This document shows positions 12,560-52,615 of a stretch of DNA of 64,000 nucleotides, one piece after another. Source of the DNA: Clostridia bacterium (GTDB taxonomy: Bacteria; Bacillota; Clostridia; UMGS1810); NCBI GenBank assembly GCA_045578205.1, contig JAZNJU010000006.1, positions 350-64,349 on the forward strand, given 5' to 3'. Positions within the stretch are counted from its first letter, which is position 1. The number at the start of each line of letters is the position of its first letter. Made by a program: the position numbers and the translations under genes. Below the pieces are notes generated by a model, which was given only the letters and a program-made list of their open reading frames with translations, was not told the origin of the DNA and did no database searches.

Positions 12560-12635
12560 GCACCATTAGCTCAGTTGGTAGAGCACCTGACTCTTAATCA
12601 GGGTGTCCCGGGTTCGAGTCCCTGATGGTGCACCA
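12560..12635 (+). tRNA. tRNA-Lys (anticodon CUU), encoded CCA
   Basis: Acceptor stem gcaccat/atggtgc. Anticodon arm cctga-CTCTTAA-tcagg, so anticodon CTT. T-arm ggttcgagtcc. Discriminator A followed by CCA. Confidence 0.9.
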
Positions 12636-12757: not shown

Positions 12758-13798
12758 TCAAAATTCAGAAAGGAATGTATTTATCTTATTCACATTCTTT
12801 TCTGTGACATCTTTTGAGAATTCTGTGTAGATATTCATTGTAGTAGATATATCAGCATGTCCCAATAATCCTTGGGCGGTTTTTGCATCGACACCTGCAC
12901 GATATAAAATTTTTGCATATGTGTGCCGGAGTTGATGTTGTGTAATATCTATGCCAAGGGTATTGACTAAATTTTTCCACTTTTTAAAGATTTGTGTCTT
13001 TGAAAGAGGAGTTTTTCCACCAAAGAGGTATTCGCCTTTCTTGGTGGCATTTTTTAGTTTTGTGATAGGTTCATGCAAAACATCTAATATTGGAATGGTC
13101 CGCATTCCGTTTTCGGTTTTAGTTTGAAATTTTACCTTTGCGGTATTACCTTCAAATTCTACAGATTTATTTACGGTAATTGTTCGGGTTTCTAAATTTA
13201 TATCTTCTTTGGTGAGTGCGAGGAGTTCTCCACGGCGAAGACCTGTGTAAAGAAGTATAAAAGCATATATATCAAAATCCACATCAAGGTTTTTGGTGAT
13301 TATGTCGATGTCGCTATCTGATGCTGCGTGACGCTTTGCTTGCTTTGCTTGCTTAGGAACACGTACTACAGATGCAGAATTTTGGACTTTAATGCCATTT
13401 AACATTGCGTAGTTTGTAATAAGCCCATAAACTATTTTAACCTTTGAAATGGAAGATTTTGAATAATTCTCCGTGAGCATATCATTAAATAATTTCTGTA
13501 TTTCGTATGGCTCTATTTCTTCTATATACCTATCGTGAAATCTTGCGAGGTGTTTATATGCTATTCTGTAAGTTTCGATGGTTTTATATGATACAGTTTT
13601 TTCTTTTTCTTCTATCATTCGCTCAAATAGTTTATTTAATTTGTGTTTCTTTTCGTGAGAAATGAATTTATATTCTGCTATTTGGTTGTCGATGTCCTTT
13701 TTTGCTTTTCTTTCTGTGTATTCGGATGAGTAAAAATATACGATTTTTCCGTCAATAGTCATTTTATGACAAAATCTTCCATCTTTTCGTTTATACAT
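12758..13798 (-). CDS. int: Tyrosine recombinase / phage integrase
   Basis: 346 aa. C-terminal catalytic region ...GLRRGELLAL...HQLRHTYAKILY...LLGHADISTTMNIYTEF (R..HxxR..Y). Confidence 0.93.
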   Translation of the reverse strand: MYKRKDGRFCHKMTIDGKIVYFYSSEYTERKAKKDIDNQIAEYKFISHEKKHKLNKLFERMIEEKEKTVSYKTIETYRIAYKHLARFHDRYIEEIEPYEIQKLFNDMLTENYSKSSISKVKIVYGLITNYAMLNGIKVQNSASVVRVPKQAKQAKRHAASDSDIDIITKNLDVDFDIYAFILLYTGLRRGELLALTKEDINLETRTITVNKSVEFEGNTAKVKFQTKTENGMRTIPILDVLHEPITKLKNATKKGEYLFGGKTPLSKTQIFKKWKNLVNTLGIDITQHQLRHTYAKILYRAGVDAKTAQGLLGHADISTTMNIYTEFSKDVTEKNVNKINTFLSEF

Positions 13799-15822: not shown

Positions 15823-16446
15823 TCAAAACTTTCTCTTCAAACTTTTTACAAGTCCGATTACTTTTATACGCAATACGTCATGTCCCTCAAAACGGCGAGG
15901 CGCAAACATAGGGTTTACGGATTGTAGTTGTATCCAATCATCACCGTAAACAACTCTTTTGACAACCCCTTCACAATCATCAATTAGCACAACAGCAAAA
16001 TCTCCACTATCTACGGAAGTTTGGTGTTGTACTAGAATGTAATCTCCCTCTATAAAGACAGGGTACATACTATCACCGTGTATCTTAAGGTAGAAATACT
16101 CTCTATCGGCTGTCATATCTTCAAGGTCAGCAGTTTCATAATCTATTATGTTACTTTCTGCAAACATACCCTCGCCGGCGGCAACAAAACCATATACGGG
16201 AATTTTGGCGGTATTTGCTGGGTGGTATTGAACTACATCTTTTGTATAGTTACCTTCTCCATACAACAAGCGTTCCACTGATACATCAAAATAATCTGCA
16301 ATCTTCTTTAATGTCACATCACTAGGTGTGGCATTTTTTTGTTTCCATTTGGTTACCGCACCTGAAGAAATTCCAAGCGTTGCTGCTACTGGGTTTGGTT
16401 TTGTGTTGTGCTTAGCACATAGTTCTATGAAATTCTCCCAAAACAT
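15823..16446 (-). CDS. CI/LexA-like phage repressor (XRE HTH + S24 peptidase)
   Basis: Start chosen at MFWENF (ATG 16444-16446, RBS ggaggt 7 nt upstream). HTH is ATLGISSGAVTKWK. S24 motifs are HGDSMYP and VVKRV. Confidence 0.88.
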   Translation of the reverse strand: MFWENFIELCAKHNTKPNPVAATLGISSGAVTKWKQKNATPSDVTLKKIADYFDVSVERLLYGEGNYTKDVVQYHPANTAKIPVYGFVAAGEGMFAESNIIDYETADLEDMTADREYFYLKIHGDSMYPVFIEGDYILVQHQTSVDSGDFAVVLIDDCEGVVKRVVYGDDWIQLQSVNPMFAPRRFEGHDVLRIKVIGLVKSLKRKF

Positions 16447-16534
16447 ATTTGTTACCTCCGTTGTACATTTCTCACAATTCTCACTAAAATATTTTGTAAA
16501 AGATAACAAAAAATAAGAAAAGTAAGAAAACATA

Positions 16535-22510: not shown

Positions 22511-23306
22511 GGAGTGGGAATGGTATAACGATCCGATTGTTAAAGCGGTATTTATTGAGTTGTTGCTCACTGCGAATTGGAAGCCAACAAAATGGAAGGG
22601 CATAGAGTTGGATGTGGGGGAGACCGTTGTCGGTCGTAAAGAACTTGCCGATGCAGTTGGGATTTCGGAGCAAAATGTCAGAACTGCTCTGCGGAAATTG
22701 GAGAACACAAAGACAATTGTTAAAAAATCAACCAACAAATATACCATCGTAAAGGTGCTTAATTACTGCAATTATCAAGCATTGGCAGAGGACAATCAAC
22801 CAACAACTAACCAACAACTAACCAACAATCAACCAACAACTAACCAACAACTAACCACACCTAAAGAATATAAGAATAATATAAATAAAGAATTATATAT
22901 AGAAGAAGCCGCGCGCGTGCGCGCACGCGAGGGAATAGCCAAGGTTATAAATCTCTATGAAGAGAACATAGGAGTGCCGTCTCCTATAACAAGAGATGTT
23001 CTTGCAGACTTACTTAGTTCACACAGTGCCGACCTGGTGGAACTTGCCATAACAGAGGCTGCAAAGGCAAATGCTCATAGCGTTAAATACATAGAGGCTA
23101 TATTCCGCAAATGGGATTCTTTGGGTATCAAAGATGTAAACGGTGCTATGCACGCCATTGCAGAGCATAAGAGTAATACAACCACTTCATACTCACAGAA
23201 GCAAACCAATGGAGGCAAGCGGAATTTCTTCCAGGACTACGATAACGAAATGAGTGATTTTGAAGTGGAACTTATGAAAAAGAGAGTAGGCAACGGAAAT
23301 GATTAA
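22476..23306 (+). CDS. Phage replication initiator / replisome organizer with C-terminal DnaD-like domain
   Basis: 276 aa. N-terminal WIKLYRKFREWEWY... winged-helix-like region, repeat linker, and a C-terminal region ...VKYIEAIFRKW... like the DnaD domain. Confidence 0.7.
   Translation: MEPWIKLYRKFREWEWYNDPIVKAVFIELLLTANWKPTKWKGIELDVGETVVGRKELADAVGISEQNVRTALRKLENTKTIVKKSTNKYTIVKVLNYCNYQALAEDNQPTTNQQLTNNQPTTNQQLTTPKEYKNNINKELYIEEAARVRAREGIAKVINLYEENIGVPSPITRDVLADLLSSHSADLVELAITEAAKANAHSVKYIEAIFRKWDSLGIKDVNGAMHAIAEHKSNTTTSYSQKQTNGGKRNFFQDYDNEMSDFEVELMKKRVGNGND
22793..22858. repeat. Two 33-bp tandem units containing four copies of 11-mer ccaacaactaa (iteron-like), inside the replication gene
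   Basis: Units at 22793-22825 and 22826-22858 differ at one base. Followed by an AT-rich tract (22861-22906) and a 16-bp GC palindrome cgcgtgcgcgcacgcg (22914-22929). Confidence 0.85.
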
Positions 23307-25065
23307 CATAACGACAGGACAAACAAATTTTTTGGACGAGATTATAGTCGATAATTTTGCCGGAGGTGGTGGAGCATCTACCGGAATAGAACTTGCTACT
23401 GGCAGAATAGTAGATATAGCAATCAATCATGACCCGGATGCCGTGCGAATGCACAAGACTAACCATCCTTACACAAAACATTATTGCGAAAGTGTGTGGG
23501 AGGTAAATCCTGTAGAAATATGTCAAGGCAGACCAGTAGGACTTATGTGGCTTAGCCCGGATTGCAAACATTTTTCCAGAGCCAAAGGCGGTAAGCCTGT
23601 AAGCAAGAATGTGAGAGGGCTTGCCTGGATAGCTGTGAGGTGGGCTGCAACAGTAAAGCCAAGAGTTATAATTCTTGAAAATGTGCCGGAGTTTGTTACA
23701 TGGGGACCTCTTGATAAGAAAAATCGTCCCGATGAAAAGCAGAAAGGAAGAACTTTTAATAGTTTTGTTAATGCGCTAAAAAGACACGGCTATGATGTAG
23801 ATTGGAAAGAGATACGTTGTTGTGATATAGGTGCTCCTACAATCAGAAAGCGATTTGTACTTGTGGCAAGATGTGACGGAAGGCCGATTGTGTTCCCGAA
23901 AGCGACACACGGAGAAGGCCTTAAACCGTACAGGACAGCAGCAGAGTGTATAGATTGGTCTATACCTTGTAAGTCGATATTTGAGAGAGAAAAACCTCTC
24001 GTTGAGAAAACACTCAAAAGAATTGCACGCGGACTTGATAAATTTACAATTAACTCGGACAAGCCGTTTATAGTGACTTGCAATCACGGAGGCGATGCTT
24101 TCAGAGGTCAAGATGTGGAGAACCCTTTGAACACTGTTACACAGAAATGCACAGATGGTGTTGTGGTTCCCTTCTTTGCATCAATGCACTTTGAAAACAA
24201 AGGCACTGCGGGTAATGCACCTTTGAGTACAATAACTACCGTTAATACTCACTATGCAGTAACTCCCCATATATCAAAATACTATGGTGGTGTTATAGGT
24301 GCTGATGTAAGTACACCACTACCGACGGTTACGCAGATAGACCATAACGCATTGGTTGGAGCATCACTTATTCAGTATCATTCAGAAACTTCGGACAATG
24401 AAGTGAGGGGACAGGATTTGCAAGAACCCATTATGACGATTGATGCTTCGCCAAGATATGCACTTACATCGGCACACATTGTAAAGTATTACAGTGGAGA
24501 TGATAACTATAGCAGTGTAAAGTCTCCGCTTCATACAGTTACGGTCAAAGAGAGAAACGCCCTTGTAGAGAGTCACTTGTGTGTCCTGCGCAACAATATG
24601 GATTGTAAATCTATGACAGAACCGCTTTCAACGGTTACTACATCAGCAGGACATTTTGCCAAGATAGACACAAAAATTGTTAAATATGATGGTGGACAGA
24701 ACCTATATCATTGGCCGGAGGTAAGAGAATTACTTAACAAATATTGTGATTATAATATGGCGGATGATGAGATTTTGCTTCTTGTAATTAACGGCGAAAA
24801 CTGTTTCGTTTGTGACATAGGTATGAGAATGCTTGTGCCAAGAGAATTGTATAACGCTCACGGCTTTCCACAGGATTACATAATTGATGTGGATTACAAA
24901 GGAAATGTGTATCCAAAGAACAAGCAGGTGGCAAGGTGTGGCAATTCTGTACCGCCTCCGCTTGCAGAGGCTATGGTAAGGGCAAATTTGCCGGAGTGGT
25001 GCGATGTAAAAATTGTAAATATGGCACAGTTACAAAATAAAGTAGCTTACGGAGGTATAAGATGA
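23299..25065 (+). CDS. DNA (cytosine-5) methyltransferase with an expanded, internally repetitive target-recognition region
   Basis: 588 aa. Motif I DNFAGGGGAS, motif IV SPDCKHFS, motif VI ILENVPEF, motif VIII TIRKRFVLVA, motif X CGNSVPPPLAEAM. Six P-[LI]-x-T-[VI]-[TD] modules lie between motifs VIII and X. Confidence 0.88.
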   Translation: MINITTGQTNFLDEIIVDNFAGGGGASTGIELATGRIVDIAINHDPDAVRMHKTNHPYTKHYCESVWEVNPVEICQGRPVGLMWLSPDCKHFSRAKGGKPVSKNVRGLAWIAVRWAATVKPRVIILENVPEFVTWGPLDKKNRPDEKQKGRTFNSFVNALKRHGYDVDWKEIRCCDIGAPTIRKRFVLVARCDGRPIVFPKATHGEGLKPYRTAAECIDWSIPCKSIFEREKPLVEKTLKRIARGLDKFTINSDKPFIVTCNHGGDAFRGQDVENPLNTVTQKCTDGVVVPFFASMHFENKGTAGNAPLSTITTVNTHYAVTPHISKYYGGVIGADVSTPLPTVTQIDHNALVGASLIQYHSETSDNEVRGQDLQEPIMTIDASPRYALTSAHIVKYYSGDDNYSSVKSPLHTVTVKERNALVESHLCVLRNNMDCKSMTEPLSTVTTSAGHFAKIDTKIVKYDGGQNLYHWPEVRELLNKYCDYNMADDEILLLVINGENCFVCDIGMRMLVPRELYNAHGFPQDYIIDVDYKGNVYPKNKQVARCGNSVPPPLAEAMVRANLPEWCDVKIVNMAQLQNKVAYGGIR

Positions 25066-25415
25066 CAGGAAAAACAAAAATATGTCCCTTTTGCCAAAGG
25101 GAATTTGTACCGGAGAATAGTGCAACTGTGTACTGTAGTGCGGAGTGTCGCAAAGGGATGCGACGCAAAAGAAGTATGGATGAAAGAAAAAACAGAACAC
25201 TCATCTGTAAATATTGCGGAAAATCTTTCGTTTCGGATTGGAAACGGAAATATTGCAGTGAAAAGTGTTGCAAAAAAGCAAACGGGGGGATGAAAACGGC
25301 GGATATGCCCAAATCTGTAAAAAAAGAACGTATGAGTACTCTTGCACAAATAAATGAACTTGCAAGAGCGGCAGGTATGAACTACGGGCAGTATGTTGCA
25401 CGACATAATCTGTGA
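25062..25415 (+). CDS. Zinc-ribbon protein, basic
   Basis: 117 aa. Repeated CxxC...C..C clusters (ICPFCQ..YCSAEC; ICKYCG..YCSEKC). Confidence 0.55.
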   Translation: MTGKTKICPFCQREFVPENSATVYCSAECRKGMRRKRSMDERKNRTLICKYCGKSFVSDWKRKYCSEKCCKKANGGMKTADMPKSVKKERMSTLAQINELARAAGMNYGQYVARHNL

Positions 25416-25482: not shown

Positions 25483-26097
25483 ATGATGAAAAACTACATT
25501 TGCTTTAATGGCAAAAAAATCGAACTGACCTCTGAGCAGGTCGCAGATATGAAAAAGTCTCTGGGGGTATGGGAAGTAAAATTATCCGATATTTCGATTG
25601 GGGAAACATTCAAAATAGGGGAGCATGAGTTCATAGTTCTTGAACACAGGGAAGAAGGAACAGCCGTAATACGAAAAAATCTGTTGTTTAAGGAAAAAGA
25701 GTTCGGAAAGAACAACGACTACAGAAACTCTTATGTAGATGTCTTATGTAAAGATTACGGGGCACAGATAGGAGAAATAGTCGGTCCTGACAACATCATT
25801 GAACACACGGTAGATTTGACCTCCGATGATGGTTTAAAAGACTACGGCTCTATCAGAAGAGTGATGTCATTACTTACTTGCAATCAGTACCGCAAGTATG
25901 TTGAGATACTGGACAAGCACAAGATAGATGCTTGGTGGTGGCTCTCTACGGCATACAGTACACCCAAACACGACAATAGCACTTGGGTTAAGTGCGTTTC
26001 GCCTAGTGGCGGCATCAACTACGATTGCAACTACGGCGGCGGCGTTCGCCCGTTTTGTATCTTAAAATCTGATATCTTAGTATCTAAAGGAGAATGA
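25483..26097 (+). CDS. DGR target (variable) protein 1
   Basis: 204 aa. C-terminus ...WWWLSTAYS...WVKCVSPSGGINYDCNYGGGVRPF carries VR1. Paralogous to the next ORF. No signal peptide or TM seen. Confidence 0.85.
   Translation: MMKNYICFNGKKIELTSEQVADMKKSLGVWEVKLSDISIGETFKIGEHEFIVLEHREEGTAVIRKNLLFKEKEFGKNNDYRNSYVDVLCKDYGAQIGEIVGPDNIIEHTVDLTSDDGLKDYGSIRRVMSLLTCNQYRKYVEILDKHKIDAWWWLSTAYSTPKHDNSTWVKCVSPSGGINYDCNYGGGVRPFCILKSDILVSKGE
25993..26053 (+). repeat. DGR variable region VR1
   Basis: 61 nt aligning to the TR with 10 mismatches, all at TR adenines. The flanks tgcgtttcgcct and ggcgttcgcccgt are identical. Confidence 0.9.
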
Positions 26098-26630
26098 ACA
26101 TGAAAAAGACAGAATTATTCAATATCAAGGTGGGCGATACCTTTAAAATCGGCGATGTAGAGTTTATAAAATTCGGTCAGGGAGGAGACAAAGTAACGGC
26201 AGTCACAAAAGACATTGTTTTCTCTTCGGTGTTTGGAAAAAATAACAATTTTGCTGAAAGCAAAGTTTTAAGAAGACTCGAAAATGAATTTCTCCCAAAG
26301 ATTGCAGAAGAAATCGGCATGGAGAACATATGTGATATAACAACAGATTTAACTACGCTTGACGGATTAAAACCCTATGGTGAAATGACATCAAAAATCA
26401 GTTTGCCGACCTTCGATTTTTACCGCCAGAATGTAAATGTTTTTGATAAGTACAAGCCTAATACATGGTGGTGGCTTGCTACTCCCGACACGGCTCAACC
26501 TCATTATAACCCCGTATGGGTAGTTTGCGTTTCGCCTGATGGCGACATCTACAACTATTGCAACATCGACGACGGCGTTCGCCCGTTTTTACGCTTTGAA
26601 TCTTCTATCTTTGTATCTTGTGAGGAATAA
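26094..26630 (+). CDS. DGR target (variable) protein 2
   Basis: 178 aa, overlaps target 1 by ATGA. C-terminus ...WWWLATPDT...WVVCVSPDGDIYNYCNIDDGVRPF carries VR2. Confidence 0.85.
   Translation: MNMKKTELFNIKVGDTFKIGDVEFIKFGQGGDKVTAVTKDIVFSSVFGKNNNFAESKVLRRLENEFLPKIAEEIGMENICDITTDLTTLDGLKPYGEMTSKISLPTFDFYRQNVNVFDKYKPNTWWWLATPDTAQPHYNPVWVVCVSPDGDIYNYCNIDDGVRPFLRFESSIFVSCEE
26526..26586 (+). repeat. DGR variable region VR2
   Basis: 61 nt aligning to the TR with 7 mismatches, all at TR adenines. Confidence 0.9.
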
Positions 26631-26632
26631 CA

Positions 26633-27001
26633 ATGGCTGATACGGATTTAAGAGTTATTGTGAAAGCCAAAGAACTGGCAGTTCACTCTTTCAAACTTAC
26701 AACGAATAGTAACAGATATCCAAAAAAATACAGACATTCTCTGTGCGATAAAATCCAGATTAAGAGCCTTGAAATTTACGAGTCTTTATTTGAAGCCAAC
26801 AGGATAAACAACAAAACGGATAAACAGGCAAGATGTGAAATGATAACAAAGGCCATAACTTATTGTGATGAATTGATGTTTTTTATTGAACTATCTATGA
26901 ACCTGGGATTGTTAAGCGGAGGTTCTTCTGAATATTGGACAAAAATCACATCAGATGTAAAACATATGGCTCTTGCCTGGAGAAAAACAGAAAGCAAATA
27001 A
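26633..27001 (+). CDS. avd: Avd-like four-helix-bundle DGR accessory protein
   Basis: 122 aa, helical, basic. KAKELAVHSFKLTTN..RYPKKYRHSLCDKIQ... resembles the four-helix-bundle/23S-IVS (bAvd) family. Sits directly between the targets and the TR. Confidence 0.75.
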   Translation: MADTDLRVIVKAKELAVHSFKLTTNSNRYPKKYRHSLCDKIQIKSLEIYESLFEANRINNKTDKQARCEMITKAITYCDELMFFIELSMNLGLLSGGSSEYWTKITSDVKHMALAWRKTESK

Positions 27002-27031
27002 TTTTTATGGGTTGTGCGTTGTATTTTTCTT

Positions 27032-27092
27032 TGCGTTTCGCCTAATGGCAACATCAACAACAATTACAACAACGACAACGGCGTTCGCCCGT
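27032..27092 (+). repeat. DGR template repeat (TR)
   Basis: tgcgtttcgcct AAT GGC AAC ATC AAC AAC AAT TAC AAC AAC GAC AAC ggcgttcgcccgt. 19 adenines, all in the 36-nt core. Lies between avd and the RT. Confidence 0.9.
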
Positions 27093-27196
27093 ACTGGTGG
27101 ATAGTTCGACAGAGTAGGCACAAGCCGAAATCAATGCACCACATCAAAAGAACGCACAACCTTTCCGTATGGATAAACAAAAGGGAGGAGTGCTGC

Positions 27197-28240
27197 ATGA
27201 CTGATTTTGAGAAGGTAATAGATTTTGACAATATGTACAGGGCTTATAGGAAATCAAAATGCGGTAAGGGATTCAAGAAAAGTTCGGCAAAGTTTAATAT
27301 CATGGCTTTGGACGGCATTTACACCCTTATTGAGCAGTTGAAAAATAAGACCTATACAGTATCCGATTACTCAGAATTCAAGGTATATGAGCCGAAAGAG
27401 AGGATTATAAAGACTACATCCTTCAAAGATAAAGTTGTGCAGCATAGCCTATGTGACAATGTAATCCTGCCAAGGTTAGAAAAGGTTTTTATCTACGACA
27501 ACTGTGCAGGACAAAAGGGAAAAGGGACCTTATTCGGGCTTAACAGGCTCAGTGAACAGATGCAACAGTTCTATAAGAGGTATGGTCACGCTGGATATAT
27601 CCTTAAATGCGACATTTCAAAGTTTTTCTACAGCATTCCGCACGAGCAACTGAAAGATATTGTAAACTACCATTTTTCGTATGACAAAGATATCTGCTGG
27701 CTGTGTGATTTGTTTATAGACAGCACCGATGGTAAAGGAATCCCTCTGGGAAATCAGATTAACCAGGGATTTGCTCTGCTCTATTTAGACGGTATGGATA
27801 AACTCATTACAGGGGAACTGGGAATTGAATATTACGGCAGGTATATGGATGACTTCTACTTGATACATACAAGCAAAGAGTACCTCAAATATTGCCTCGA
27901 AGTAATCAGGGAATTTCTGGAAACATTAGATTTAACCCTCAATGGCAAAACTCAGATATTTCCATTCAAAAATGGTGTAAGTTATCTCGGATTTCATACA
28001 TACATAACTTTCACAGGAAAAGCCATAAGGAAACTAAAAAACCAAAATAAGCGTAATGCTCAGAGAAAATACTTTAAAATGGCCAAGAGAGTTGCAAGTG
28101 GTGAACTCTCCATAGATAAGTTTGATGCTTCCTACACGGCTTGGAAAAACCATATGTTGCACGGTAACTGCTATAGGTTAGGAGAGGCTATGGACGAGAT
28201 GATAAGGAGAATTTTAGGAGAAAGGAAAAAAGAGACATGA
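27197..28240 (+). CDS. DGR-type reverse transcriptase
   Basis: 347 aa from ATG 27197 (RBS aagggagg). RT motifs ...IPLGNQINQ... (DGR-like [LI]GxxxSQ variant) and GRYMDDFYLIH (YxDD). The ORF-track N-terminal extension (27014-27196) is just the TR read in frame. Confidence 0.88.
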   Translation: MTDFEKVIDFDNMYRAYRKSKCGKGFKKSSAKFNIMALDGIYTLIEQLKNKTYTVSDYSEFKVYEPKERIIKTTSFKDKVVQHSLCDNVILPRLEKVFIYDNCAGQKGKGTLFGLNRLSEQMQQFYKRYGHAGYILKCDISKFFYSIPHEQLKDIVNYHFSYDKDICWLCDLFIDSTDGKGIPLGNQINQGFALLYLDGMDKLITGELGIEYYGRYMDDFYLIHTSKEYLKYCLEVIREFLETLDLTLNGKTQIFPFKNGVSYLGFHTYITFTGKAIRKLKNQNKRNAQRKYFKMAKRVASGELSIDKFDASYTAWKNHMLHGNCYRLGEAMDEMIRRILGERKKET

Positions 28241-29040: not shown

Positions 29041-29232
29041 GTGAAACAGATGGCTGAATTAAAGACTTGCCCGAAATGTAGAAAACGGGAGGAAATAACA
29101 GTGTGCATTATTAAGTTTCCTAAAAAACACAAAAATAAATATGTAAAATGTTTTGCTTGTGGTTATGAAACAAAAAGAGCATTTACTCTGACGGGAGCAA
29201 TGAAGAATTGGAACAGGAGGGCAACAGTATGA
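29041..29232 (+). CDS. Lar-family-like restriction alleviation protein (zinc ribbon)
   Basis: 63 aa. MAELKTCPKC...VKCFACGYET...GAMKNWNRR matches the Lar pattern LKxCPxC...CxxCG...WNrR. Confidence 0.5.
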   Translation: MKQMAELKTCPKCRKREEITVCIIKFPKKHKNKYVKCFACGYETKRAFTLTGAMKNWNRRATV

Positions 29233-30351: not shown

Positions 30352-30897
30352 ATGAACAAAGCGATACCTTCAAAAGAGGTCTTGCATAAAAAATATATTG
30401 ACGAAAACAAACCCATACACAAAATTGCAAAAGAATTGGGCATGTCTGTTGGGAAAGTTTTTAATTATATCAAAAAATATAATATCCCCACAAGAGACCA
30501 AAAATCAACTTTTACTATGCAAGGCCACCGATTATCACAGGAACAGTGTATGGCTATATCAAAAAGAAATAAAGGCAGAAAATTCAGTCAAGAAACGAAA
30601 CAACGCATGTCCGCTTCTGCAAAAAAAGGTGGGATAGGACATAAAAAGAAAAGAAGTGACGGGTATGTTGCCATTTATTTCCCTGACCATCCTAATAGTT
30701 CTAAAGACGGATATGTGATGGAGCATATTCTCGTTATGGAATGCGTAGTTGGTAGGCGATTGTACGGTGAAGAATGTGTACACCACAAGAATGGGAAAAG
30801 GAATGACAACAGGATAGAGAATTTACAGTTAATGACGAAGTCAGAGCACATGAGACATCATATGAAAATAAGATGGGAGGAAAAAAGGAATGCTTAA
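30352..30897 (+). CDS. HNH (homing-type) endonuclease with N-terminal HTH
   Basis: 181 aa. ...DGYVMEHILVME...VHHKNGKRNDNRIENLQLMTKSEHMRHH. Confidence 0.85.
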   Translation: MNKAIPSKEVLHKKYIDENKPIHKIAKELGMSVGKVFNYIKKYNIPTRDQKSTFTMQGHRLSQEQCMAISKRNKGRKFSQETKQRMSASAKKGGIGHKKKRSDGYVAIYFPDHPNSSKDGYVMEHILVMECVVGRRLYGEECVHHKNGKRNDNRIENLQLMTKSEHMRHHMKIRWEEKRNA

Positions 30898-31273
30898 CAA
30901 ATTTATCGGAGTCGGCAGACTAACCCGAGATGCAGAATTAAAAACCACAGCAGGCGGTACAAGCGTATGCAGTTTCACCCTTGCCGTAAACAGACGATTT
31001 AAGAACGCAGAGGGCAACTACGATGCAGACTTTATAAACTGTGTGGCGTGGAGAGGTCAAGCAGAACTCATATCCAAGCAGTTTAAAAAGGGCGATATGT
31101 TCGGCATAGTAGGCAGTCTGCAGACAAGGACATACGAAAAGGACGGCAGTAAGACATACATAACAGAGGTAGTGGTGGAGGAAGTAAACTTCGTGGGCGG
31201 AAAGAAGTCGGACAAGGGTGGGACCACAGACGATATTCTTCCTATGCCTGCGGATGATGAACTTCCGTATTGA
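30890..31273 (+). CDS. ssb: Single-stranded DNA-binding protein
   Basis: 127 aa. OB-fold pattern NKFIGVGRLTRDAELKTT..G..V..FTLAVNR. Acidic C-terminal tail DDELPY. Confidence 0.9.
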   Translation: MLNKFIGVGRLTRDAELKTTAGGTSVCSFTLAVNRRFKNAEGNYDADFINCVAWRGQAELISKQFKKGDMFGIVGSLQTRTYEKDGSKTYITEVVVEEVNFVGGKKSDKGGTTDDILPMPADDELPY

Positions 31274-42679: not shown

Positions 42680-44034
42680 GGTGGTATATGGCAATATCAA
42701 TAAGAGCAACAAGGGATGAACACAGTATTACAGTGTGGCTCACGGGACTTAATCCTGAATATAACTTTGATGACCGATATCTTGAGTATTTTATTTGTGA
42801 AACAGGCACGAACGCTTGGGAGTCTGACGGAACGCTGTATCAGATAAAAAGGGGGATAACTACAACTCCAAAGCACAAATTTTACAATCTTGAATCGAGC
42901 ACAGAGTATGACATCAAGATTATTATAGGATTTTTGGGAGATACAAGTCCCGATCAGGAATATACTCTGACAAAATGGACTGCTGATCCAAAACCGATAC
43001 TCCAAAAGTTTAACTGTTTTAGTGATATAAATGCCGATGATGATTGGCTTAGAGCATCTTGCCATTTTTCACTTGATAATATTTCGGAAGGCAATACAGA
43101 ATATAGTATATCTGCACGACAAAGCGGTACTGAATATTGGTATCCGAAGGAAGAAGATAACATTTACAAATATAGTGTTACGGAAAGTGGTGATAGTGCG
43201 AGAGGAACTATTATTGTAAGACTGAATTCAGTATCTGAGTCTGAAGAAAGCAGAATGTTTGATTTTCGTCTCACCGTAAAAACAGGAGCATTAGAAACAC
43301 ATTTTTTTGTGTACGATGTGGAAATAATGTATAACCCTATAGACTATTTAGAGGTGAAACAAGGTTCTCGTAATTCTGATGGAACATATTTTGTTAAAGT
43401 TTGTTGTTACTTGAAAAAAGAAGGTTTTTATTCTTTTAACATGAGTTTTATAAATAATAATACGGGGCAGGGGTTCACGCATGATAGAGAGACTGATTAT
43501 GCTATTGGAGATGCTATTCCTTTTTGGGATGATTTGCCGATTGGGAATTATACAATAACAGTAAATGTGAATGCTTATAACAGTAAGGAAGATTATGAAA
43601 ACGATATTTGGAACACTACAGCAACGGGATATAAGAATACGTATATTGATGTAGTAGGTCCTGCAGTAGACTATTTTGAGTGGGATACAGAGATAACTCC
43701 AACTAGGCTTATGGCAAATTGTATAAACAAGGAAATACATCCGGTTACTGCGACGGAGTGGAAAAGGTTCATATCAAGGATAACAGAACTCAAGGATTTT
43801 CTAATGAGGCATAACATGTCATTTATTGGATTTCCGGATTCGTTTACAAAGGTCATTCCCGGTATGAATTTTTCTCCTGCAATATATAACGAGGTTGCAT
43901 ATGCGTTAAAAATATTAAGTTATGCCGCGGGTGAAAAGTATTCAATTATGCAAATTGACGATGACACGGTATTAACTGCAAGTCTTTTTTCGAATTTACG
44001 AGATCAGTTTAATTTTTTAGTTGATAATATATAG
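42676..44034 (+). CDS. Tail-associated structural protein
   Basis: 452 aa. Overlapping start/stop with its neighbours. Confidence 0.5.
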   Translation: MRWYMAISIRATRDEHSITVWLTGLNPEYNFDDRYLEYFICETGTNAWESDGTLYQIKRGITTTPKHKFYNLESSTEYDIKIIIGFLGDTSPDQEYTLTKWTADPKPILQKFNCFSDINADDDWLRASCHFSLDNISEGNTEYSISARQSGTEYWYPKEEDNIYKYSVTESGDSARGTIIVRLNSVSESEESRMFDFRLTVKTGALETHFFVYDVEIMYNPIDYLEVKQGSRNSDGTYFVKVCCYLKKEGFYSFNMSFINNNTGQGFTHDRETDYAIGDAIPFWDDLPIGNYTITVNVNAYNSKEDYENDIWNTTATGYKNTYIDVVGPAVDYFEWDTEITPTRLMANCINKEIHPVTATEWKRFISRITELKDFLMRHNMSFIGFPDSFTKVIPGMNFSPAIYNEVAYALKILSYAAGEKYSIMQIDDDTVLTASLFSNLRDQFNFLVDNI

Positions 44035-44056
44035 TATTTTAAACGGAGGTGTTTAT

Positions 44057-47000
44057 ATGTCACACGTACATAACATTACAGATACGGGCAGTATATTTGT
44101 TATTGATGCGACCACAAAGACAATAAAAAAACCTGCTGATGTGCCAAGAGTGGTGCAGGGAGACCACAACAGTGAGATACTTAGTTTTTCACTTAATGCG
44201 GTGTTGATTGAGGGTCATAATATGGCAGAATGTGACCGTTGTGAAATTCATTTTACCAACTTCAATCCCGAAACCGAAGAAAAGACAGAGGGAGTATATA
44301 AGGTTGAAGATTTAATGGTGAGCGAAGATGGTAGCAAGGTATTATTCTCTTGGAAAATATCAGATGAAGCCACGTGGATTTGGGGGGCACTTAGTTTTTC
44401 GGTAAAGTTCTTGTGCTTTGCAGAAGACGGAACAGTTTCATATGAGTGGAATACACTTACATCGGGTGGTATTCCCATTTATCCTGGCAAGAGCAATACG
44501 AGAACCGTTTTAGAAAAATACCCCGACTTCATAGAAAAGATAAAATTAACGGCAGATAAGTGTTATGAGACAGTAAACAAGACTTTGACTTATGAAATGA
44601 TTGGTGTAGTTCCTTCGCATAACGAATGGTTTACATTCACTCTTAATGCAGATGGAACAGGATATTCTGTTAAAGCCAATTTTGATAATGAAGATACAGA
44701 GAAAACGGATATTGTTATACCCTATAAGTACAAAGGTCTACCTGTTAATACAATATCAGCAGGTGCATTTGCAGATAAGGTTGGAGTGGTAAGTGTTGTA
44801 ATTCCGAATACAGTATCGACCATCGGAAGTAAAGCATTTCAAGGATGCTCAAGTCTTCAGAATGTTATATTGCCCAAAAACATTGCGGTTCTGAATTCTT
44901 CATTGTTTCAAGGCTGTACAGGGCTTACACATATTGACTTGCCAAAAGGCATAAAGGAAATTCAATACGATGTATTCCGTGAAACTGCAATCACACATAT
45001 GGATTTACCATACGGTATTGAGTATGTGGGCGAAACGCTTTTCTTTGGTTGTACCGCACTAAAAAGTGTCAACATTCCCAATTCTGTTAAGGAAATAAGA
45101 CCCCAAGCATTTGGGAAATGTTCAAGCCTTGTGGAAATAGTCATTCCAAACAGTGTTACTTCTATGGGAATTGGAATGTTCTCGCAATGTTCAAATTTGC
45201 GGTCAATGGTTATAGGAAACGGCATAACGACACTTGGTGGGCATTTTGCCTTGTATTGTGACAAATTAGAGCGAGTTGTTATTCCGTCATCGGTGACAAG
45301 CATAGAAAGTAATGCTTTTTGGAATAGAAGTTATGTGCCCAATCCAAACGTTACTTTGTATGTAGAGCAGGGCTCATATGCTGAGGAATATGCAAAGCAG
45401 TATAAGATGAAATATGTGTATAGTGAAGTTGGCAAAGATGCTATATCAGACAAGATAGCCGAAAGTCTTGAAGACGGTGGCACTGTCAATGAGTTTCTAA
45501 AGAATAATCAACCAGACTATAATCAAAATGATGAAACTAAGATTGACTATATTAAAAATAGACCATTTTATGAATATGTAGAGGAAACTACAAACGAGAC
45601 TATAGCATGTGAATTTACTCTCGGCGATTTTGCTTACTCTAATAAAACATATTTCTTGGGGCTAAAACCCGGGAACCCATATCAAATAAATCTTAAATGC
45701 TATAAAGATGATGAACTAATGAGTACTACAGAGGCTGAGTCAAAGGCAAGTTCTGTGGTTAAAGGTTATGGCGTATCTCTTACTTTGGATACAGATGATT
45801 ATTATATTAATATAGACGATAAAAGTGCTTCAGCATATCATAACAAATTTCCAGAACAATTCAACGGCATATATTTAAGTCAATACTGGAATTGGGTAGA
45901 GCATGAAATATTTGTATATGTAGACGGCATTGACCGATGTGTTCTGACAATAACAGGTGATTTTAGTAGAGTAAAGCCAAAATATCTTCCCACAAAGTTC
46001 ATAGAAGAGGGAGAAATATGTCCTCGACATTTAGGGAATTCAAATATACAAGCGATATTGTCTGGTTTATCCAAAGGGGCTGGGAATAACTGGCTTAGTT
46101 CACTGCGTTTGAAGAAAGACAGTGTCCCCTACATACTCGATGTAGATGAAAATGGTTTATTACGCACACGGCGTGAAAATGGTGATGGTTCTACATTTGA
46201 ATATGCAACAAGAGACGATGTCAAAAAATTGGCGCCACTGTCTGACTGGAATCAAGTTGACCCAACACAACCCGACTACATCAAGGGCAGACCTTTTTAT
46301 GAATCAAAGGTTGTTTTAATTGACGTCGATATACCACCTCATGACAACATAGATGAAACCGCTCTTTATTTTGATGTTGATAAGACGCTGCTGGCTGATG
46401 GTGCTATAGTGAGTTTTGAACTATTTGACGATGATGGCACTTATGGTGCGACACGAACTCTTACAGAAAACGACGAATTTCTCCAAGGAGCCCATTGGTA
46501 TGATGAACAGGTACAAGTGTTTTTTGTCTTCGTGACCGAAACAGGAATTTGTCTGCAAACACCTCTAATGATAAAACCTTTCAAATTCAAATTTACTGTT
46601 GTGACAAGAAAACTCCTGGACGAAAAATTCATTCCCGACACCATCGCAAGAACGGCAGATGTAGAAGGGTTAGAGAGCGTAGCAAAAGGTGCTGCAAGGT
46701 CTCATGTATATAAAACATATAAAGAAATGGCAGAGGCATTTGCGACTATGACCGCTGACGATGTAAGGGTTGGTGACCACATATATATTGAGCAATTAGG
46801 TGTTCCTGACTTGTGGATAAGCAAAGTGCACGAAACGCAACTTGAGGGCTATTATTATTACAATACTGATGAATCACTCATCCTAACGTTCGACGCGAAT
46901 GGAAGCGTGCCCGTTAATACTCCTTGGTTTGAAGTTTCTATGTCGGAATCCTCTAAGTTGAACACAGAGAATTCCACGCTAAAAGTTAAAATACCAGACG

Positions 47001-47146
47001 AATTTAGTGGCAACGTAACATTGGATAGTGAGCAACATTACCCATCAATGGCTATTATGAGTTATTACATTAACAAAGCAATTGAAGAAGCAATCGGTAC
47101 AGCAAACGCAGAACTTGAAAGCATACTCGCAGGAGGTGTTGACTAA
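44057..47146 (+). CDS. Multi-module receptor-binding/tail protein with BspA-type leucine-rich repeats
   Basis: About 1029 aa from ATG 44057 (RBS ggaggtg). The N-terminus VVQGDHNSEILSFSL is tentatively BppU_N-like. LRR_5-type repeats lie at approx. 44711-45325 (IPNTVSTIGSKAFQGCSSL..., IPNSVKEIRPQAFGKCSSL...). Two D[YW]NQ.D....DYIK.RPFYE junction motifs. Confidence 0.75.
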   Translation: MSHVHNITDTGSIFVIDATTKTIKKPADVPRVVQGDHNSEILSFSLNAVLIEGHNMAECDRCEIHFTNFNPETEEKTEGVYKVEDLMVSEDGSKVLFSWKISDEATWIWGALSFSVKFLCFAEDGTVSYEWNTLTSGGIPIYPGKSNTRTVLEKYPDFIEKIKLTADKCYETVNKTLTYEMIGVVPSHNEWFTFTLNADGTGYSVKANFDNEDTEKTDIVIPYKYKGLPVNTISAGAFADKVGVVSVVIPNTVSTIGSKAFQGCSSLQNVILPKNIAVLNSSLFQGCTGLTHIDLPKGIKEIQYDVFRETAITHMDLPYGIEYVGETLFFGCTALKSVNIPNSVKEIRPQAFGKCSSLVEIVIPNSVTSMGIGMFSQCSNLRSMVIGNGITTLGGHFALYCDKLERVVIPSSVTSIESNAFWNRSYVPNPNVTLYVEQGSYAEEYAKQYKMKYVYSEVGKDAISDKIAESLEDGGTVNEFLKNNQPDYNQNDETKIDYIKNRPFYEYVEETTNETIACEFTLGDFAYSNKTYFLGLKPGNPYQINLKCYKDDELMSTTEAESKASSVVKGYGVSLTLDTDDYYINIDDKSASAYHNKFPEQFNGIYLSQYWNWVEHEIFVYVDGIDRCVLTITGDFSRVKPKYLPTKFIEEGEICPRHLGNSNIQAILSGLSKGAGNNWLSSLRLKKDSVPYILDVDENGLLRTRRENGDGSTFEYATRDDVKKLAPLSDWNQVDPTQPDYIKGRPFYESKVVLIDVDIPPHDNIDETALYFDVDKTLLADGAIVSFELFDDDGTYGATRTLTENDEFLQGAHWYDEQVQVFFVFVTETGICLQTPLMIKPFKFKFTVVTRKLLDEKFIPDTIARTADVEGLESVAKGAARSHVYKTYKEMAEAFATMTADDVRVGDHIYIEQLGVPDLWISKVHETQLEGYYYYNTDESLILTFDANGSVPVNTPWFEVSMSESSKLNTENSTLKVKIPDEFSGNVTLDSEQHYPSMAIMSYYINKAIEEAIGTANAELESILAGGVD

Positions 47147-50580: not shown

Positions 50581-50901
50581 ATGGACAAGTTTATTTGTGT
50601 AATCATTTTTCTGCTCGGATTTGTGGCATTTTTTGTGTCTGTAGTTACCGAACTTACAAAAGAGATGTCGCTCTTAAAAAGGATACCTACAATATGGCAG
50701 GTGGTGGTACTATCTGTTAATGTATGGATTTTGATATTCTTCACTGCCTGCAGTCTGGGATATTGCCAAAGAGAATGGTATTTGCTTGTGGCTTCCGTAA
50801 TGGCAGGGTTTATGAGTGCGTTTATTGCTTCGTACGGTTGGGAGAAATTATATGTAAGATTTAAAGAGTATGTAAGAGGAGCGGATTCCAATGGTAAATA
50901 A
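50581..50901 (+). CDS. Holin
   Basis: 106 aa from ATG 50581 (RBS ggaggt). Three hydrophobic helices and a charged C-terminus. Directly precedes the endolysin. Confidence 0.7.
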   Translation: MDKFICVIIFLLGFVAFFVSVVTELTKEMSLLKRIPTIWQVVVLSVNVWILIFFTACSLGYCQREWYLLVASVMAGFMSAFIASYGWEKLYVRFKEYVRGADSNGK

Positions 50902-51601
50902 ACTCATACAAATCGCCCTTGCCGAAGTTGGATATCTTGAGAAGCGAAGTGCCGCTTCTCTTGATTCCAAAATCGACAATGCAGGGAGTAAGAATTACAC
51001 CAAGTATGCAAGGGATATGTGCAAATGCCACGCAGGAATATATGTCAACGGTTATGCCTGGTGTGACACCTTTGTAGACTGGTGCATGGTACAAGCCTTT
51101 GGTGTGGACAAGGCTCTGGAACTCATACACGGTTGGAGTGCATATACGCCTACATCTGCTTCGTACTATAAGCAACATGGCGAATGGCACAGCACACCTA
51201 AAAAGGGCGACCAGATATTTTTTAAAGACAGCACCGGCACTATATGTCACACGGGCATAGTTTACGATGTAGACAGTAACTATGTTTACACTGTAGAGGG
51301 TAACACCTCAACACAAAGCGGTGTTGTGGCAAACGGCGGTGCAGTCGCAAAGAAAAAATATGCTCTAACCTATAACAGAATAGCAGGATATGGAAGACCG
51401 AAGTATCCTGTTGCAAAGGAGGAAACAAAGAAGATGATTTATAACACTGTTAACGATTGCCCGGCATGGGCGAGACCTTATGTGCAGAAAGCCGTAGACA
51501 ATGGGTACATAAAAGGAGATGGCACAGGCAGTCTTAATCTCAACGATATGAAGATATGGTGCCTTGTGGTAATGCTCCGAATGTGCGGCATAATGGAGTG
51601 A
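50891..51601 (+). CDS. Endolysin: CHAP-type amidase/peptidase + C-terminal wall-binding (SLH-like) segment
   Basis: 236 aa. ...NGYAWCDTFVDWC... (Cys), ...ICHTGIVYDV...EGNTS (His). C-terminus WARPYVQKAVDNGYIKGDGTGSLNLND. Confidence 0.8.
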   Translation: MVNKLIQIALAEVGYLEKRSAASLDSKIDNAGSKNYTKYARDMCKCHAGIYVNGYAWCDTFVDWCMVQAFGVDKALELIHGWSAYTPTSASYYKQHGEWHSTPKKGDQIFFKDSTGTICHTGIVYDVDSNYVYTVEGNTSTQSGVVANGGAVAKKKYALTYNRIAGYGRPKYPVAKEETKKMIYNTVNDCPAWARPYVQKAVDNGYIKGDGTGSLNLNDMKIWCLVVMLRMCGIME

Positions 51602-51943: not shown

Positions 51944-52615
51944 GTGCCGGATATTTCAAGGAGTAAATTCAGAAGTTTAATTCCCGATATCTCACTAAAA
52001 ACAAACTATGAGAGTCCTCTTAAAAAGTTGGGATTTTCTGCTGTGTCGGGAGCAGATGAACGCAAGAATGCATTGTTAAGCAAGTATAAGGCATATGCAG
52101 GCATGGGTCAGCAAAATTCAAATGCTACATCGGTGTCAACTATTACAAGGCAAGGTGCTGTATCGTCAAGTTATACTCCCGGCAGCAGGGTGGCTAATTC
52201 GGCTTCATACAATAACGATGCCGCCAAAGGACAATGTGTTTGGTATGTGCGAGGACGGGCAAAAGAAAAACTTGGTGTAGACACAGGTGCTATTGGTAAT
52301 GCAAATGAAATGTATTATAACGCAAAAGACTCTGCAAAGGTCTCTGCGAGTGCTGAGAACATAAAACCCAATATGATTGTTTCTTACAGTAAAGGTACAG
52401 GCTCTGCAGGTCAGACATACGGGCACGTAATATTCATTGAAGATGTTGTTGGAGATACGGTGTACTACACAGAAGGTGGAAGCGGATACTATCAAAATGG
52501 TACAGACGGAGTGGTAAAAACTGCAACAAAACAGGGTATTCTCGATGGCGTGAACACTTCGGGTGCAAGAATGGGAAGCGGAGTGTTGGGATTTATTGAT
52601 TTGACTAAATATTAA
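51944..52615 (+). CDS. CHAP-domain peptidoglycan hydrolase (virion-associated candidate)
   Basis: 223 aa, GTG start with RBS gggaggtgg. ...AAKGQCVWYVRGR... (Cys), ...YGHVIFIEDV... (His). Confidence 0.75.
   Translation: MPDISRSKFRSLIPDISLKTNYESPLKKLGFSAVSGADERKNALLSKYKAYAGMGQQNSNATSVSTITRQGAVSSSYTPGSRVANSASYNNDAAKGQCVWYVRGRAKEKLGVDTGAIGNANEMYYNAKDSAKVSASAENIKPNMIVSYSKGTGSAGQTYGHVIFIEDVVGDTVYYTEGGSGYYQNGTDGVVKTATKQGILDGVNTSGARMGSGVLGFIDLTKY

Follow-up and report, generated by a model that had tools for sequence, protein, structure and literature searches.

What does a phage gain by diversifying proteins that are short, carry no recognisable anchor and are encoded among its early genes? The question is raised by a prophage in a 64,000-nucleotide stretch of a Clostridia bacterium of the UMGS1810 lineage (contig JAZNJU010000006.1, positions 350 to 64,349), hereafter the window, whose own numbering is used throughout. 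Judged by its sequence, the segment at 25483-28240 is a canonical, intact diversity-generating retroelement (DGR) with two tandem target genes. Phage DGRs are generally read as tropism switches on tail proteins; large surveys describe their targets as mainly tail proteins, and gut-virome surveys link DGRs to host-range breadth via adsorption. Our analysis of the locus and its relatives tentatively favours another role, in which the diversified proteins would be made early, stay out of the virion and bind their ligands inside the cell.

The cassette consists of two target genes, an accessory gene (Avd), a template repeat (TR) and a reverse transcriptase (RT) gene, in this order, with a variable repeat (VR) in each target gene:

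25483-26097, + strand: target 1, open reading frame (ORF) of 204 aa; probable start at 25486, giving 203 aa
25993-26053, + strand: VR1, at the 3' end of target 1, encoding CVSPSGGINYDCNYGGGVRP
26094-26630, + strand: target 2, ORF of 178 aa; probable start at 26100, giving 176 aa
26526-26586, + strand: VR2, at the 3' end of target 2, encoding CVSPDGDIYNYCNIDDGVRP
26633-27001, + strand: Avd accessory protein, 122 aa, PHROG 3206 match
27032-27092, + strand: TR, non-coding, 61 nt, from direct-repeat family D2 and register alignment
27197-28240, + strand: DGR reverse transcriptase, 347 aa, PHROG 1423 and PF00078

Except around the TR, the genes of the cassette overlap or stand 0 to 3 nt apart, and the start of target 2 overlaps or abuts the stop of target 1. 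The starts at 25486 and 26100 are favoured by database gene calls and by ribosome-binding-site spacing. Both VRs align with the TR without gaps, and the 61-nt core contains 10 mismatches for VR1 (8 A>G and 2 A>T) and 7 for VR2 (4 A>G and 3 A>T). All 17 mismatches fall on TR adenines, though adenine accounts for 19 of the 61 TR bases; the chance of such an outcome is approximately 0.31^17, or about 2e-9. The 19 adenines are spread over eight AAY, one ATC, one TAC and one GAC codon equivalents, from which we count a coding potential of approximately 1.6e11 protein variants per target (15^8 x 4^3). The distance from the end of the VR to the stop of the ORF is 44 nt in both targets.

The homology between TR and VRs extends over just 61 to 63 nt, with a boundary at which the TR reads CCGTAC and the VRs read CCGTTT. 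Published TR/VR homologies in Faecalibacterium phage DGRs are longer, at 100 to 135 bp. An inverted-repeat search found no notable hairpin or cruciform downstream of the VRs and no structure in the spacer between TR and RT. Megablast of 24 kb against 50,697 phage records returned no near-identical phage genome, and the closest relative of target 1 in the genome collection has 74% identity.

The two proteins expected to carry out the diversification are recognisable. Avd matches PHROG 3206 ('Avd protein of DGR', 8.4e-21) and has weak matches under the curated cut-offs to bAvd and 23S_rRNA_IVP in Pfam and to DivGenRetAVD in NCBIfam (33.9 bits). The RT adjoins the TR, matches PHROG 1423 (1e-104) and PF00078 (5.2e-16) and has an intact catalytic YMDD; PADLOC gives it a generic RT call only. 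RTs of the DGR clade usually carry the motif 4 signature [ILV]GxxxSQ. At this place the window's RT, read as a single sequence, has LGNQINQ, in which Asn replaces Ser.

The original prediction for this locus, made from the letters alone, described the targets as two small paralogs of 204 and 178 aa sharing the blocks FKIG..EFI, FGKNN, DLT..DGLK.YG, WWWL and CVSP...GVRPF. The ORFs and all of the blocks are present, and the two proteins are paralogues with 41% identity across 172 aa (E 4e-43). The claim that they have no signal peptide, lipobox or transmembrane helix also stood up to a Kyte-Doolittle scan and a check of the N-termini, both of which are polar (maximum 19-residue means of 0.66 for target 1 and 0.51 for target 2). 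So did the lack of a tail-fibre-like anchor: no canonical tail-fibre adaptor, Ig, Fn3 or other anchor domain was found in either target using Pfam and PHROG profiles or AlphaFold2 (AF2) models. What does not follow is the description of the proteins as apparently cytoplasmic, since virion proteins also lack signal peptides.

On profile matches and structure models, the targets are stand-alone, single-domain DUF6273/PHROG 9958 proteins. PHROG 9958, a family with no assigned function, matches both at full length (1.5e-37 for target 1 and 8.2e-33 for target 2). In a search against DUF6273-like families, suggested along with the prediction, PF19789 (DUF6273) covers the C-terminal third only and scores just below its gathering score of 23.5 bits (18.6 for target 1, 22.9 for target 2), and a precomputed PF19789 match is present in many homologues of 62-80% identity. 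PHROG 10993, 'Hoc-like head decoration', matches the C-terminal part of both targets including the VR (in target 1, residues 149-201, 3e-7). Using tblastn, target 1 also matched the small DUF6273 targets of published gut phages, namely those of nd4 (31%, 5e-20), nd12 (36%, 2e-15), Lelie (32%, 2e-11) and Toutatis gp24 (31%, 1e-9). With one predicted domain, a C-terminal VR and homology to the described members, the window's targets belong to the small, stand-alone DUF6273 'tgt2' class. Neither target has a match in PADLOC or NCBIfam, which is weak evidence as no anti-defence library was searched.

The AF2 models show one globular domain each, with a predicted local distance difference test score (pLDDT) of 85.8 and a predicted template modelling score (pTM) of 0.80 for target 1, and 91.8 and 0.87 for target 2. 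In the model of target 1 the pLDDT is lower in the VR region, at 54-85 for residues 161-190. Target 1 has an extra N-terminal beta-hairpin and helix (residues 1-28), which target 2 lacks; the element, MxNYIxxNGxKIELTxEQV, is kept among orthologues. Foldseek against BFVD matched the target 1 model to DUF6273 gut-phage proteins (E 1e-8 to 1e-6, TM 0.56-0.64). Against PDB the same model matched 9qa6 (E 1e-3, probability 1.00), the IgA peptidase of Thomasclavelia ramosa, which has DUF6273 as its N-terminal domain; the target 2 model had no significant PDB match. Classical C-type lectins, the type of fold proposed as a check, surfaced weakly in the PDB searches (E 0.15-1); the C-type-lectin-like label for DUF6273 is that of the literature and not of our own structural comparison. 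Mtd, the classical DGR target, was not matched by sequence or by the target models in PDB fold searches.

The targets lie among early genes, 6.4 kb upstream of the large terminase. The rightward early operon includes a weak RecT-like match, a helicase, HNHc_6 and HTH_39 proteins, a DnaD-like loader, a C5 methyltransferase and a NinG-like zinc ribbon. The genes closest to the cassette, up to the terminase, are:

23299-25065, + strand: C5 DNA methyltransferase, PF00145 3.7e-26
25062-25415, + strand: NinG-like zinc-ribbon ORF, 117 aa, Ecl1 zinc-ribbon 32.3 bits (cut-off 28.3), weak NinG
29041-29232, + strand: Lar-like restriction-alleviation protein, PF14354 30.2 bits (gathering 28.6)
30352-30897, + strand: HNH endonuclease, PF13392 2.3e-12
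30890-31273, + strand: SSB, PF00436 6.2e-30
from 32512: large terminase, PHROG 38, 6e-105

The order of DnaD, C5 methylase, zinc ribbon, DGR, Lar-like protein, HNH and SSB, followed by the terminase, places the cassette in a predicted delayed-early region, with timing read from gene order. The early, anti-restriction neighbourhood named in the original prediction is therefore real, and it is conserved across the 147 non-redundant loci described below. Its account of the neighbours was right for the C5 methyltransferase and the Lar-like protein and omitted the zinc-ribbon ORF between the methylase and target 1. About 18 kb downstream of the targets, where it placed the receptor-binding genes, stands a gene for a 1041-aa leucine-rich repeat (LRR) protein. 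Small ORFs stand between the cassette and the Lar-like gene. We also considered a moron-like cassette with its own promoter and terminator and found no support for it: promoter-like sites number 32, compared with 29.4 +/- 4.9 in shuffled sequence, and neither flank shows a convincing terminator. At 588 aa the C5 methyltransferase is unusually long, and its Pfam and PHROG matches fall into two parts, residues 13-197 and approximately 399-574; the insert of some 200 residues between them may represent one large target-recognition region or several.

The window's cassette is one of many. Database homologues number 4286 for target 1 and 2992 for target 2, the closest being nearly all 176-205 aa long. 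A profile search of 1.84 billion cluster representatives gave 1395 relatives; among the best 150 of these, most are 170-230 aa long, and the domain runs to the C-terminus. For comparison of gene order, 166 loci were used, comprising 80 from IMG/VR, 80 from genomes, 5 metagenome contigs and the window. The arrangement target-target-Avd-RT was found in 116 of the 166; most of the others are cut by contig ends, and a few have one target or three. The hosts are Oscillospiraceae, Acutalibacteraceae, Faecousia, Ruminococcus and related Clostridia metagenome-assembled genomes (MAGs) from animal and human guts. In two IMG/VR loci, L033 and L039, a paralogue of the target 2 type lies approximately 6 kb upstream of target1-Avd-RT rather than in tandem, so remote small targets occur within the lineage too.

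The adenine-specific pattern extends to these relatives. Across 134 unique TR/VR pairs, the VR differs from the TR at 53% of TR adenine sites (1448/2725) and at 0.68% of other sites (42/6137), and we therefore consider the lineage to be actively diversified.

Neighbouring ORFs were clustered and the representatives annotated. The commonest neighbours are SSB, Sak annealing protein, a DnaB-type helicase, a replication initiator and an SMC/AAA_23 ATPase; a metallo-beta-lactamase-fold protein, YopX, GIY-YIG, Bro-N/ORF6C, integrase and cI repressor are also common. An early or lysogeny marker is present in 117 of the 147 non-redundant loci, and the early markers not related to lysogeny are co-oriented with the cassette in every instance (254/254). 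Flanks of 5 kb or more are available on each side in 74 loci; replication, recombination or lysogeny markers occur in 66 of these, and in 37 they stand on both sides. With the exception of two loci, visible terminases start 1.5 to 5.7 kb downstream of the RT.

Three terminase families or more, unrelated to one another, are represented: 15 loci have Terminase_6N, accompanied by a P22-type portal, 14 have PF03354, and the window has a type of its own to which no other locus offers a relative. Terminase family, scored within 10 kb of the cassette, served as a proxy for virion architecture and no more. Target 1 of one Terminase_6N locus (L141) is 78% identical to that of a PF03354 locus (L035) and at most 55% identical to those of the other Terminase_6N loci. 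As target 1 similarity is uncoupled from terminase family, a fixed virion docking partner is unlikely, and the cassette appears instead to be a portable early-region module, independent of terminase family.

With a probability of approximately 0.4, we read the targets as early-expressed, non-virion intracellular binders, and this is our preferred interpretation. It is favoured because the early position is conserved and co-oriented, because the cassette is independent of the packaging module, because neither target has an anchor domain, and because the small target of the Toutatis phages stays among early genes though their DGR sits by the tail genes. In addition, a diversified gene needs linkage between genotype and phenotype, which an intracellular protein made from the infecting genome would have directly. 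In the corresponding mechanism, the RT-Avd complex would copy the TR RNA into cDNA with misincorporation opposite adenines, as established for DGRs, and the mutated cDNA would replace the 61-nt VR at the 3' end of each of the tandem paralogous genes. The targets would be made together with the delayed-early genes, with which they form a tightly packed, co-oriented string that includes replication, methylase and Lar-like genes. They would then act as free hypervariable binders in the infected or lysogenic cell against a variable factor of the host or a competitor, such as a defence protein, and progeny with different VRs would differ in the hosts that they can take over. It is possible, though we put this forward with reserve, that an Oscillospirales prophage DGR lineage of more than 100 loci is dedicated to such non-structural, antibody-like early binders, neutralising or hijacking variable host factors.

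A number of points weigh against intracellular action. No experiment exists on any member of the small DUF6273 target class, and every DUF6273 domain of known location is extracellular, as in the Ig-anchored tentaclins and Hoc-like targets, the Pioen target with its tail-fibre N-terminus and the secreted T. ramosa IgA peptidase. In nd4 and nd12, Lelie and CP11, and Toutatis, one TR serves both the small target and a presumed virion protein, a sharing that suggests a similar class of ligand. The cassette of the presumed virion tentaclin of nd4 adjoins replication genes, so position is weak evidence. Small capsid decoration proteins likewise have no recognisable anchors. Terminase family is a proxy for virion architecture, timing has been taken from gene order with promoter and terminator scans at background, and PADLOC and NCBIfam matched the targets to no known anti-defence or defence family.

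Nearly as likely as the preferred interpretation is that the targets are accessory adhesins of the virion, held non-covalently on capsid or tail in the manner of a decoration protein or the tip protein Mtd, where they would bind variable glycans or proteins of the host surface or mucosa. The DGR would then be an ordinary tropism or adherence device whose cassette happens to lie outside the structural module. Receptor binding is the published view of this class, and related phages have DUF6273 VR domains joined to Ig anchors or to the N-termini of tail fibres. The match of both targets to the Hoc-like PHROG 10993 points in the same direction, and the conserved 28-residue hairpin and helix in the model of target 1 could be a docking element, though target 2 has no such element and neither model has an anchor domain. 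The nd4 cassette that contains a tentaclin is likewise beside replication genes, and yet in none of our loci does the cassette fall within the head-tail gene string, and its orientation is that of the early genes throughout. An adhesin would also have to accommodate at least three packaging modules, with target similarity uncoupled from terminase family, and the early placement of the Toutatis small target, although its DGR adjoins the tail genes, argues against it as well. A free lectin released at lysis seems unlikely because the linkage between genotype and phenotype would break.

It is improbable that the binders are expressed from the prophage and benefit host and prophage together, for instance as hypervariable sensors or decoys directed at superinfecting phages and other mobile elements, by analogy with cellular DGR targets linked to conflict systems. 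Cellular targets tied to defence or signalling systems are known (cited in PMC8008677), the cassette of L004-type prophages lies approximately 2 kb from the cI/cro switch, and for a Faecalibacterium prophage DGR the published VR variation is seen in ordinary bacterial genome reads as well as after induction. In the window, however, the cassette is on the lytic-direction strand downstream of the replication genes, its promoter signal is not above background, no conserved effector partner adjoins it and PADLOC gives no matches. That the DGR of this prophage is an inactive relic with drifting targets is very improbable. No near-identical genome was found that would show ongoing VR variation in this prophage, but RT (with its YMDD), Avd, TR and both target ORFs are intact, the core has zero non-adenine mismatches and the adenine-specific pattern is strong lineage-wide.

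The original prediction also drew attention to a TAC->TGC change, Tyr to Cys, at the same codon of both VRs, as a hint of selection or of shared history. The change is present in both at TR position 27066, and the mutation spectrum suffices to explain it. In the VR cores of the lineage, 170 TR Tyr codons correspond to 104 Tyr, 45 Cys and 14 Phe. The A>G rate at Tyr codons, 27%, equals that at Asn and Asp codons, 28% (Fisher p = 0.78), and Cys is mildly favoured over Phe among mutated Tyr sites (p = 0.025); the coincidence was accordingly given no weight as evidence of selection for Cys or of shared history. TGC in both VRs is expected approximately 7% of the time, and the mutated sites common to both VRs number 4 against 3.7 expected. 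A tendency toward Cys in the same VR motif was noted by Baykov et al. 2023 (PMC10743442). A disulfide-based argument for an extracellular location was set aside as uninformative, the hosts being strict gut anaerobes.

A separate feature of the spectrum concerns A>C, counted in 124-134 unique TR/VR pairs from loci L004-L168 and the window. The change is nearly missing at second codon positions (2/834 AAC, 1/168 TAC and 0/69 GAC) and is not rare at first positions, where 73 of 904 AAC codons became CGC, CTC or CAC. Thr, Ala, Pro and Ser (TCC) are therefore hardly ever found in the VRs. Either selection or a context-dependent RT bias could account for the scarcity.

The remainder of the prophage carried by the window is defined by the following features:

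12560-12635, + strand: tRNA-Lys (CTT), Rfam
12758-13798, - strand: tyrosine integrase, adjoining tRNA-Lys
15823-16533, - strand: cI-like S24 repressor
44021-47146, + strand: BspA-type LRR protein, 1041 aa, PF13306 1.3e-51, weak match to LRR adhesin HupY
50891-51601, + strand: CHAP-domain protein 1, lysis region, weak SLH-domain match
51944-52615, + strand: CHAP-domain protein 2, lysis region

The tRNA-Lys gene beside the integrase is, for that reason, the probable attachment site. A search from it for attL and attR found no direct repeat of at least 12 nt beyond 45 kb; the right end of the prophage would lie at about 54 kb. The Rfam scan found the tRNA alone. From the terminase on, the late genes include those for the portal, the major capsid protein, the LRR protein and the CHAP lysins, and the BspA-type LRR protein is likely to be the receptor-binding protein of this phage. 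No gene resembling a tape measure and no recognisable tail-tube protein was noticed among the proteins of the window, and a cassette-bearing relative, L008, has a P22-type portal; these are hints of a podovirus-like tail. The weak SLH match in the first CHAP protein suggests a host envelope that may bear an S-layer. To the right of the prophage, 54600-64000 contains approximately 25 small ORFs of 50-200 aa, mostly on the minus strand, possibly a second mobile element; seven of them were checked and had no Pfam match.

What the targets mean for DGR biology depends on where they act. In the window's lineage the only diversified proteins are small, without anchors and encoded with early genes, whatever the virion module. 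If they are intracellular binders, DGRs would also be a device for diversifying counter-defence or host takeover, a role so far suggested for Quimbyvirus only, and the host-range breadth that DGRs drive would here act after DNA entry and not at adsorption. If they are add-ons to the virion, the targets would amount to a portable adhesin able to dock on particles of very different kinds. The question of what non-structural phage DGR targets do has already been posed in the literature, and the window adds breadth to it, not resolution.

Neither the arrangement nor the methylase neighbourhood is new. DUF6273-only targets outside the structural module have been published (PMC10743442, PMC11792537 and bioRxiv 10.1101/2024.10.15.618418), as has a target beside methylases that was proposed to be non-structural (PMC8008677). 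The classical case, Mtd of BPP-1, shares with the window the order target-Avd-TR-RT, a C-terminal VR, adenine mutagenesis and, according to the literature, a domain of the C-type-lectin type. It differs in being 381 aa long, with an N-terminal beta-prism and a beta-sandwich that dock on the tail fibre, and its gene ends the tail module; the window's targets, modelled as single domains, have neither these extra domains nor that position. Tentaclins and Hoc-like proteins (FP_Mushu, FP_Brigit, nd4_tgt1) share the DUF6273 variable domain with the window's targets. In those, the VR domain is N-terminal and followed by Ig-like domains with a conserved C-terminal Ig anchor, whereas the window's targets have no Ig domain and carry the VR at the C-terminus.

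The second DGR target of Quimbyvirus is encoded amid methylases and genes of a counter-defence type, and a non-structural role in phage-host conflict has been proposed for it (Benler et al. 2021, PMC8008677). By its description, it resembles the window's targets in lying distal to the structural module with methyltransferase neighbours. Quimbyviruses are phages of Bacteroidetes, however, and in them this target lies far from the RT, on the other strand, while the first target is by the tail fibres.

The closest counterparts are the small targets that tblastn had matched to target 1. Of these, nd4_tgt2 and nd12_tgt2 are DUF6273-only, C-lec-like proteins with a C-terminal VR and no adaptor of the Mtd type, for which receptor binding was proposed (Baykov et al. 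2023, PMC10743442). Like the window's targets, they consist of a lone DUF6273 domain without signal peptide or anchor. In nd4 and nd12 the small target shares its TR with a large, Ig-anchored tentaclin, and it is the tentaclin that MAGs with one target retain, whereas the window has two small, stand-alone targets and no tentaclin, belongs to other Oscillospirales hosts and has a structural module that looks podovirus-like.

'Large and small' DUF6273 targets were described in the Faecalibacterium prophages Lelie and CP11, their function being called unclear (Gulyaeva et al. 2024), and in Toutatisvirus a distance of 17,480 nt separates the TR from the small target, which is a core gene (Egorov et al. 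2024); the sources for these phages are PMC11792537 and bioRxiv 10.1101/2024.10.15.618418. These proteins, Toutatis gp24 among them, are again DUF6273-only, DGR-diversified and approximately 215 aa long, and their genes stand among early genes such as methylases and a replication initiator, as in the window. In the Toutatis record that we inspected, the small target sits among methylases and replication genes. There the TR and RT are approximately 17.5 kb off, by the tail genes, whereas the window's targets are a tandem duplicate directly upstream of Avd-TR-RT. The window is thus, by its sequence features, a member of a described class of small DUF6273-only targets outside the structural module. 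What is peculiar to it is that, with no virion-anchored partner, both targets are small and stand in tandem.

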